Below, piece by piece: positions 30,870 to 32,896 of a stretch of 64,000 bases of DNA (positions are counted from its first letter, which is position 1; the number at the start of each line of letters is the position of its first letter). A program made the position numbers and the translations under genes. This stretch comes from Nitrososphaeria archaeon. Lineage in GTDB: Archaea > Thermoproteota > Nitrososphaeria > Conexivisphaerales > UBA164. A model generated the notes under the pieces. The model searched no databases. It saw only the letters and a program-made list of their open reading frames with translations, and was not told the origin of the DNA. The stretch is from positions 1,836-65,835 of the forward strand of contig JAWDMM010000003.1 of assembly GCA_046536595.1 (NCBI GenBank). The letters run 5' to 3'.

Positions 30870-31262
30870 TTATCTTTTATGAGTGGCGCAGCTTACTATC
30901 TTATCGTTCGAAAGCGTATAGCAGGGCAACCCCAGATCGCTTAATCTTCTTGCGAGTTCAAGGTCTAATGTAAATACAGGGTACCTGGTTTTTAAAGCGA
31001 GTTTTAAAATATCGTCGTCAGCATTTTTGTTAAATTCTTCAAAACTTTCGACCGTCAGCAACCTGTAGTTTTTAATTATCTTCCTTTTTTTGGAAAGTTT
31101 TTCGAGTTCAACTATGACTGATTTCGGTACAGTTATTTCAGGCATTCCTATTTCATCTACTATACGATCTAGCACATTACTGGGTTTTTCTAAGAGGTAT
31201 ATTATAAAGCTCGTATCAAATATAACCTTCATATTATAATTCCGGAACCCGCAAGGCGCCAC
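30870..31262 (-). CDS. PIN-domain protein (Fcf1/Utp24-like), downstream of aIF2-gamma
   Basis: VIFDTSF, VIVELEKL, ADDDIL, VFTLD. Confidence 0.85.
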   Translation of the reverse strand: MAPCGFRNYNMKVIFDTSFIIYLLEKPSNVLDRIVDEIGMPEITVPKSVIVELEKLSKKRKIIKNYRLLTVESFEEFNKNADDDILKLALKTRYPVFTLDLELARRLSDLGLPCYTLSNDKIVSCATHKR

Positions 31263-32896
31263 CTGTCAGCCACTATTCTGCTTAACGCTACCCTGTCTCC
31301 ACGGAGCGTGACAGCTGGCCTCTTCAGTTTTATCCTCATAATTTCCTTTGTCACTTCTTCAACAACACCCAGGTTTGTCATTGTGCCTATGTTTAGCCTC
31401 ACATTTTCTCCAGGCCTCAGCTTTTCATACCTTACCATTTCCTTCAAGCCTATTACGTATTCAAATAATTCATATTTTATAACGATTTCATTAACAGGGT
31501 CAGGCAAAAATCCTACCTTTGCTACATAGTTTCCAACCATTATATCGTTTTTGGTAAATATTGGATCAAGATTGGTGCCTATGGCTATAAGTCCACCGGG
31601 CAGGACCTCATCTACAGGTCCACTTGAAGTAGATAAGCTTACTGCTTCAGTGATTATTGGTTGATATGAACCCCTTACAGGTATGCCGGGTTTTATTTCT
31701 ATTTTGTCGCCGACCCTTATTTTTCCCTGTTTCAGTGATCCACCAAGAACTCCTCCTTTGAGTTCAGAAATTTTAGCGCCGGGTTTGTTTATGTCAAAAG
31801 ATCTCAAAACCTGCATGAGAGCTGGCGCGTCAGGATTTCTGGGCGGAGTTGGTATATATTCTTCTATAGCCTGTAAAAGGGCGTCAACGTTCAGCTTTTT
31901 CTGCGCTGAAACTGGAATTATTGGTACCTGATTATAGCCAAAGGAACTCAGAAACTCAACGATCTTGTTATAGTTATTCAGTGCCTGGTCATAAGTTACA
32001 AGGTCAACCTTGTTCTGAACAACGACAATGTTCTTGATTCCTATCATTTTAAGCGCCTGAAGGTGTTCCTTGGTTTGTGGTTGCGGTACTGGTTCATTTG
32101 CTGCTATAACTAGAAGAGAGCCGTCCATGAGTGCCGCTCCACTGAGCATGACGGACATCAAACTTTCATGACCCGGTGAATCAATAAAACTTATAACCCG
32201 TTTCAGCCTTGCTTCTCCTTTTGGACAGTTGCCATCTGTGTTAAATTTTTCTGGTTCAGGAAGCTCGGGACATTCATAAATAGCAGCATCAGCATATCCT
32301 ATTTTGATCGTAATTCCCCTTTTGAGTTCTTCGCTGTGCATGCTCGTCCATTTGCCTGTAATGGCTTCAACCAGCGTTGTATTATGAGAGATTATACCGT
32401 GTGAAGAAATAAAGTTATGAAAAAACGGTACGCTTAAATCAAAAAGATAGCCTTCATAATTTTTGGGTATGTTTTTTACGACTTTATCTAGTATAAGCTT
32501 CTTTCCTTCATAAACTAATATCGATTCATCAGGTTTAATTGTCTGAGCCTTTTTCCAATGATCCTTTACAAGCAATTTATGTACAGGTGTAACGGATATG
32601 GATCTGCCGGTTTCGGTTTCTATTGATATTATCTTCCCTCTGTACTTCTGGAGATATACAAAACCACGGCTTTTTCTCAAATCTTTTCCGGAAAGAGAAA
32701 CAGAAGACAAAGGAGGTTCAAAAAGCTTTTCATCATAAGCTTTTTTAAAATCATATCCTACGATTTCTTTTAATATTTCACGTCCTGTGTAAAAAGTGTC
32801 TCCAATATACGCGCTTTCTTCTAAAGTAAGGCACTTTCCATGATCAACGTGGCCTGCAGTACCTATGTTAACTTCTGGCTGTTTTGGAATTTTCAA
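31229..32896 (-). CDS. eif2g: Translation initiation factor aIF2 gamma subunit, intein-containing
   Basis: QPEVNIGTAGHVDHGK, [intein], TTLVEAITG, ELKRGITIKIGYA, DSPGHE, NKVD, RWRLAGSG. Confidence 0.96.
   Translation of the reverse strand: MKIPKQPEVNIGTAGHVDHGKCLTLEESAYIGDTFYTGREILKEIVGYDFKKAYDEKLFEPPLSSVSLSGKDLRKSRGFVYLQKYRGKIISIETETGRSISVTPVHKLLVKDHWKKAQTIKPDESILVYEGKKLILDKVVKNIPKNYEGYLFDLSVPFFHNFISSHGIISHNTTLVEAITGKWTSMHSEELKRGITIKIGYADAAIYECPELPEPEKFNTDGNCPKGEARLKRVISFIDSPGHESLMSVMLSGAALMDGSLLVIAANEPVPQPQTKEHLQALKMIGIKNIVVVQNKVDLVTYDQALNNYNKIVEFLSSFGYNQVPIIPVSAQKKLNVDALLQAIEEYIPTPPRNPDAPALMQVLRSFDINKPGAKISELKGGVLGGSLKQGKIRVGDKIEIKPGIPVRGSYQPIITEAVSLSTSSGPVDEVLPGGLIAIGTNLDPIFTKNDIMVGNYVAKVGFLPDPVNEIVIKYELFEYVIGLKEMVRYEKLRPGENVRLNIGTMTNLGVVEEVTKEIMRIKLKRPAVTLRGDRVALSRIVADRWRLAGSGIII
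32381..32833 (-). mobile_element. Mini-intein (151 aa, no homing endonuclease) in the aIF2-gamma P-loop
   Basis: In-frame insertion between GHVDHGK and TTLVE. Starts CLT, has block B TPVH and block F FDLSV, ends SHN with Thr at +1. Confidence 0.93.

Follow-up and report, generated by a model that had tools for sequence, protein, structure and literature searches.

A predicted endonuclease-less mini-intein in the P-loop of the translation initiation factor aIF2-gamma from a hot-spring Nitrososphaeria archaeon

The aIF2-gamma gene and its insertion

The window analyzed here is a stretch of 64,000 nucleotides on contig JAWDMM010000003.1 of a Nitrososphaeria archaeon (assembly GCA_046536595.1). 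Its minus strand carries the gene of an aIF2-gamma precursor (Table 1), with a TTTATA box about 27 nt upstream. The exteins scored 532.6 bits against the equivalog model TIGR03680 (curated cut-off 514.5) and 545 bits against NF003077 (cut-off 315). With the first of these scores and the domains GTP_EFTU, GTP_EFTU_D2 and eIF2_C, the host qualifies as an archaeal aIF2-gamma, the identity that a first, sequence-only reading of the window had given it. The gene ends in TGA, which shares the tetranucleotide ATGA (31229-31232, minus strand) with the ATG of the following PIN_9-domain gene; this suggests translational coupling of the gene pair. Four Cys ligands are found in the zinc knuckle of many archaeal aIF2-gamma proteins; the corresponding region of the C-extein (about 32200-32270, minus strand), YECPELPEPEKFNTDGNCPKGE, contains two Cys only.

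Table 1. Features of the aIF2-gamma locus; positions are those of the window.
Feature	Position	Strand	Basis and remarks
aIF2-gamma precursor gene	31229..32896	-	ORF list; TIGR03680 and NF003077 matches; 555 aa, TTG start
N-extein, 21 aa, ending in P-loop GHVDHGK (residue -1 = Lys)	32834..32896	-	translation; orthologues with identical context
Predicted class-1 mini-intein, 151 aa, HINT fold, without homing endonuclease	32381..32833	-	profile matches, AF2 model, Foldseek, PDB profile search
Cys1 codon, block A nucleophile	32831..32833	-	invariant in 21 aligned aIF2-gamma mini-inteins
Block B, T82-P83-V84-H85 (TxxH)	32579..32590	-	ACA CCT GTA CAT; P83 and H85 invariant
Block F, YLFDLSVPFFHNF, with Asp132	32408..32446	-	D132, P136 and F141 invariant; H139 at least 90% conserved
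Block G, terminal His150-Asn151	32381..32386	-	CAT AAT; invariant
+1 Thr (ACA), P-loop Ser/Thr of GxxxxGK[ST]	32378..32380	-	sequence and orthologue comparison
C-extein, 383 aa + stop: remaining G domain, domain II, eIF2_C	31229..32380	-	Pfam GTP_EFTU, GTP_EFTU_D2, eIF2_C
PIN_9-domain gene, 120 aa, downstream of aIF2-gamma (context, outside the intein)	30870..31232	-	ATG overlaps aIF2-gamma TGA

In minus-strand translation the precursor reads MKIPKQPEVNIGTAGHVDHGK / CLTLEES…SVTPVHKLL…YLFDLSVPFFHNF…GIISHN / TTLVEAITGK. The 151-aa in-frame insertion between GHVDHGK and TTLVE, followed by Thr at position +1, had been noticed in the sequence-only reading and is borne out by the ORF translation, the motifs and the intein profiles. 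It is placed between the Lys and the Thr of the G1/P-loop (GHVDHGK/CLT…SHN/TTLVE), and deleting the 151 residues gives back the canonical G1 motif GHVDHGKTTLVE of the intein-free orthologues. The insertion scored 49.0 bits with the Pfam model Intein_splicing (PF14890, cut-off 35.8), 42.7 bits with TIGR01445 intein_Nterm (cut-off 24.5) and 20.3 bits with TIGR01443 intein_Cterm (cut-off 15.6). Motif conservation was assessed in an alignment of this intein with 20 homologous aIF2-gamma mini-inteins from related genomes (21 rows). Of the 50 complete aIF2-gamma inteins listed, 49 are followed by Thr at position +1 and one by Ser.

Neither a LAGLIDADG nor an HNH domain was found in the insertion by Pfam and TIGR/NCBIfam profile searches, which agrees with the earlier statement that it has no LAGLIDADG domain. 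Aligned with relatives of 206-257 aa, the intein shows no gap-filling insert at all. A length of about 130-200 aa, with blocks B and F not separated by an endonuclease domain, defines the class of mini-inteins here, and with its 151 residues and no such domain it falls into this class. An AlphaFold2 model of the intein, built from the 21-row alignment, reached a pLDDT of 95.4. The top 30 matches of this model in a Foldseek search of the PDB were all inteins, with TM values of up to 0.85 (0.77-0.85 for the solved mini-inteins). The best structural matches include PabCDC21-1 (6rpp, TM 0.83) and TvoVMA (4o1s), with TM values of 0.81-0.83. These two are archaeal mini-inteins found in nature, each about 168-170 residues long; they differ from this intein in their hosts, MCM/CDC21 and V-ATPase A, and share 23-26% sequence identity with it. 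The insertion thus combines in-frame position, Cys1, TxxH, the block F Asp, His-Asn/Thr+1, profile matches and the HINT fold. Given the canonical motifs, the modeled HINT fold and the structural matches, it is, by sequence and model, a canonical class-1 mini-intein.

The profile search of PDB sequences ranked the mini-intein of the Pyrococcus horikoshii (Pho) RadA protein first (PDB 4e2u, 4e2t and 2lqm; E 4e-23), and the TM value with 4e2t is 0.85. The Pho RadA intein is likewise small and sited in the P-loop of an NTPase (PMC4513877). Its host is a recombinase, whereas the host here is a translational GTPase.

Presumed dependence of the host protein on splicing

The assembly is a MAG of 1.54 Mb, 91% complete, with a single aIF2-gamma. 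The other matches of the aIF2-gamma search in this genome are EF-1alpha, aIF5B, EF-2 and similar proteins, and a second aIF2-gamma copy is ruled out by the search within this 91%-complete MAG. A P-loop cut by 151 residues should be unable to bind GTP, so that the cell would depend on protein splicing. Since an intein-free paralogue, which was looked for throughout the genome, was not found, splicing must work, as the sequence-only reading had argued for an essential host.

The intein-bearing sequence is present in hot-spring metagenomes and metatranscriptomes. The latter suggest that the aIF2-gamma gene is expressed in situ, although such libraries and contigs can hold DNA carry-over. RNA-run contigs from the hot-spring metatranscriptomes cover the gene continuously, with neither a gap nor a joint, and one contig extends over positions 31290-32836; removal of the insertion at the RNA level is therefore rejected, with the reservation that DNA carry-over is possible in these contigs. 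On this evidence splicing must take place at the protein level. Hot-spring and microbial-mat metatranscriptome runs, and runs labelled 'hypersaline lake', contain contigs more than 99% identical to positions 31100-32840. In unsaturated within-genus comparisons, dN/dS is 0.12-0.28 for the intein versus 0.03-0.08 for the exteins. The intein is under purifying selection, weaker than that acting on the host protein.

We propose that transcription and translation of the gene yield a 555-aa precursor with a split P-loop. The first reaction would be an N-S acyl shift at Cys1. The second would be a trans-esterification onto the hydroxyl group of Thr+1, and the third the cyclization of Asn151 with the assistance of His150. 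An O-N shift would complete the reaction. GHVDHGK would thereby be ligated to TTLVE, yielding the normal 404-aa aIF2-gamma with the predicted junction peptide …AGHVDHGKTTLVEAITGK. Splicing is probably constitutive.

Splicing could alternatively act as a conditional switch, with temperature, redox state, GTP or the subunits aIF2-alpha/beta controlling it and gating the pool of active aIF2 post-translationally. This is considered unlikely. A precedent exists in the P-loop intein of Pho RadA, for which conditional splicing has been shown (PMC4513877, PMC5790916). The hot-spring habitat of the organism is compatible with such control, and so is the fact that an intein without endonuclease has been kept under purifying selection as the sole intein detected in the 91%-complete MAG with our own profiles, PF14890 and TIGR01445. 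Retention and purifying selection would, however, be expected just as much of any intein that is locked into an essential motif, and close relatives (genus g2, family f3) thrive without it. A redox switch would call for a second Cys able to pair with Cys1. The intein contains one Cys, which is Cys1, and the N-extein none; a disulfide trap within the intein or with the N-extein is therefore ruled out. There is perhaps a slight chance that contacts between extein and intein place splicing under the control of temperature, nucleotide or partner subunits, and that the intein has been retained for this reason. Such control would gate the assembly of the aIF2 ternary complex, and with it global translation initiation, at the post-translational level in the manner of Pho RadA.

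Distribution and ancestry of aIF2-gamma inteins

The gene was found in seven other genomes of the genus, and each of them has a homologous mini-intein at this site; so do two more genera of the family (g3 and g4). The intein-bearing proteins of these relatives are 63-95% identical over their whole length, and the mini-inteins of the family-level relatives are 35-95% identical to the intein studied here. The mini-inteins of the three genera form one clade (SH-aLRT 98) that is congruent with host taxonomy. By this phylogeny, the intein is inherited vertically across at least three genera. A third genus of the family, besides g3 and g4, has a 406-aa aIF2-gamma without an intein. The exteins of this genus lie at the same distance as those of other families, and it is therefore unnecessary to assume a precise loss from within the group that bears the intein. 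Among 301 sampled genomes of the class, intein alleles are confined to a few non-mainstream families; for the two large families f7 and f12, every row listed from this sample is without an intein.

In a collection of 5.8 billion proteins, about 45 clusters (90% identity) of aIF2-gamma contain an intein at exactly GHVDHGK/T. These inteins are 146-638 aa long (146-642 aa with those of the species representatives included) and have Cys1, His-Asn and a +1 Thr (Ser in one case). The large ones carry the Pfam domain LAGLIDADG_3, although a strict LAGLIDADG regular expression gave no match in them, whereas the intein of 151 aa described here has no endonuclease. GTDB species representatives were also scanned for DNA encoding GHVDHGK-C, which returned at least 120 loci. 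By N-extein context, at least 39 of the junctions are in aIF2-gamma, in Nitrososphaerota, Geothermarchaeota, Iainarchaeota, Woesearchaeota, Nanoarchaeota and Bathyarchaeia. An additional locus from Bathyarchaeia (L031) was left unclassified by the context rule, and its exteins match aIF2-gamma. One protein cluster labelled Odinarchaeia also has an aIF2-gamma intein at this site. Across the public genomes of uncultured Nitrososphaerota/Conexivisphaerales, Geothermarchaeota, Bathyarchaeia, Iainarchaeota, Woesearchaeota and Odinarchaeia, the aIF2-gamma P-loop inteins share with the present one the insertion point GHVDHGK/T[TS], Cys1, His-Asn and Thr+1 (one Ser).

Junctions in aIF5B/IF2 numbered at least about 70 in the same scan, with Thermococcus, Methanocaldococcus, Archaeoglobaceae, Desulfurococcales, Caldarchaeum, DPANN archaea and, for IF2, some Patescibacteria as hosts. 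The presence of aIF5B inteins at the equivalent GHVDHGK/T site in Thermococcus and Methanocaldococcus had been stated correctly in the sequence-only reading. Four loci (L037, L088, L089 and L143) are bacterial IF2 genes of Patescibacteria (Uhrbacteria, Saccharibacteria) with inteins of about 526-546 aa in the context GHVDHGK/C…HN/T.

Given the protein clusters and the junctions in species representatives, aIF2-gamma is, as far as predicted inteins go, a common intein host in sequence databases. The present P-loop intein is near-identical (97-98%) to proteins deposited in public databases, and many archaeal lineages have this site occupied. Two expectations of the sequence-only reading, that aIF2-gamma is not a common host and that an intein at this site would be novel, are overturned by these database counts. 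We take COG0532 to be the COG of aIF5B/InfB. The entry 'aIF2, 15 inteins, COG0532, IF-2 subunit gamma' in Table 2 of PMC4760082 is therefore ambiguous, and it was the nearest to a clear description of an aIF2-gamma intein that the literature searched contained.

The sequence-only reading had further proposed that the intein moved between paralogous translational GTPases through their shared motif, which would here mean homing from aIF5B into aIF2-gamma through the GHVDHGK/T DNA motif. The P-loop inteins of aIF5B ('IF2'; NF011418), known from Thermococcales, Methanococcales, Desulfurococcales and DPANN archaea, are located at the same G1 position (GHVD[HAS]GK/T), and many archaea have the identical peptide motif at the point of insertion. 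In two genomes of the same order, both genes contain P-loop inteins and lie about 2 kb apart (L019, G024:C44; L020, G028:C94). The inteins of these two genomes measure 337 and 365 aa in aIF5B (GHVDAGK/C) and 160 and 158 aa in aIF2-gamma. Trees of the splicing domains alone (250 and 153 rows, about 157 columns) showed strong clustering by host and weak backbones; the AU test rejected neither a clade of aIF2-gamma and aIF5B inteins (p-AU 0.61) nor the monophyly of all aIF2-gamma inteins (p-AU 0.82).

Other evidence stands against homing from aIF5B. The aIF5B of this genome (C19, 592-aa ORF) is itself intein-free and reads GHVDAGK/TSLLD. When the intein alone was searched against 1.8 billion representative proteins, the best matches were inteins of MCM, FlaI and aIF2-gamma. 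Only two aIF5B proteins were among the best 150 matches, at an E value of about 1e-4, and they ranked under the inteins of MCM, FlaI and Lhr. With a profile of the mini-intein family, the best aIF5B inteins reached 106 bits, equal to unrelated P-loop inteins with about 108 bits; some large aIF2-gamma inteins scored 83-97 bits, which is likewise not above the other P-loop inteins. In a tree of full-length endonuclease-bearing inteins (91 rows, 534 columns), the aIF2-gamma inteins are united in a single clade (SH-aLRT 89), with the P-loop inteins of Lhr helicases as its sister (SH-aLRT 99), and the aIF5B inteins stand apart in a clade of their own (99) next to the MCM inteins. Endonuclease regions of the aIF2-gamma inteins of 572-642 aa scored 72-138 bits with the Lhr intein P0151 versus 47-59 bits with the best aIF5B intein. 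Forcing an exclusive clade of aIF2-gamma and aIF5B on the full-length inteins is 55 lnL worse, with a p-AU of 0.053, so that this grouping is disfavored and not formally rejected. In view of the search ranks, the profile scores, the full-length trees and the endonuclease matches, an origin from aIF5B is not supported. The aIF5B inteins have a paralogous host, form separate clades and show no specific affinity to the aIF2-gamma mini-intein, and the proposed movement between the paralogues is regarded as improbable.

The nearest relatives in the full-length tree are inteins of archaeal Lhr-type helicases, found in the context PTGSGK/C…HN/TLA in four proteins (P0151, P0147, P0135 and P0148). The first three are sister to the aIF2-gamma inteins that carry an endonuclease; they also show the best similarity in the endonuclease region. 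Unlike aIF2-gamma, the protein in which they reside is a helicase of the SF2 type (Pfam DEAD, WH_Lhr and DEAD_assoc). These data suggest a relationship of the aIF2-gamma inteins with the P-loop inteins of Lhr helicases and not with those of aIF5B. The link to Lhr is seen for the large endonuclease-bearing alleles and weakly for the 151-aa mini-intein; it appears better supported than an aIF5B origin.

A divergent aIF2-gamma lineage (P0041, P0044 and P0045) has a 146-aa intein, CLHPSERV…, which resembles the Desulfurococcales aIF5B inteins (CLHPDERV…). It falls inside an aIF5B clade in a FastTree run and not in an IQ-TREE run; its branch is long. This lineage may represent a true transfer from paralogue to paralogue. 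Such jumps may thus occur, though not demonstrably for the 151-aa intein.

The mini-intein family is most likely linked to the large aIF2-gamma inteins, as suggested by the shared site, the weakly supported splicing-domain trees and the non-rejecting AU test. Relatives of 191-263 aa carry 50-110 extra residues, for which no similarity to the middle regions of the large inteins was found; a stepwise decay of the endonuclease is therefore put forward as an inference.

A probable relic intein in an essential protein

That the insertion is dead and does not splice, or that it is an assembly artefact, is exceedingly improbable, the artefact being rejected by the same insertion in many independent MAGs and in metatranscriptomes, and the dead insertion being contradicted by invariant catalytic residues, by a dN/dS well below 1 and by an essential P-loop that would be split without a back-up gene.

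The insertion is very probably a functional, splicing-competent, endonuclease-less relic class-1 mini-intein, vertically inherited and trapped in the essential, single-copy aIF2-gamma. It would most likely descend from endonuclease-bearing aIF2-gamma inteins, which are still present in other Nitrososphaerota. The endonuclease would then have been lost, with vertical inheritance ever since in at least three genera of the family. The intein very probably persists because nothing short of an exact deletion within this essential P-loop could remove it.

The 151-aa insertion of aIF2-gamma is thus an ordinary, vertically inherited, endonuclease-less relic intein, and little about it is new. As a compact natural mini-intein with Thr+1 from a hot-spring archaeon, it could serve as a part for protein engineering. 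It could also provide a test case for conditional splicing in a translation factor. The analysis documents aIF2-gamma as a recurrent intein host, a role without a clear description in the literature searched, and it suggests a kinship of the aIF2-gamma inteins with the P-loop inteins of Lhr helicases over those of the paralogue aIF5B.
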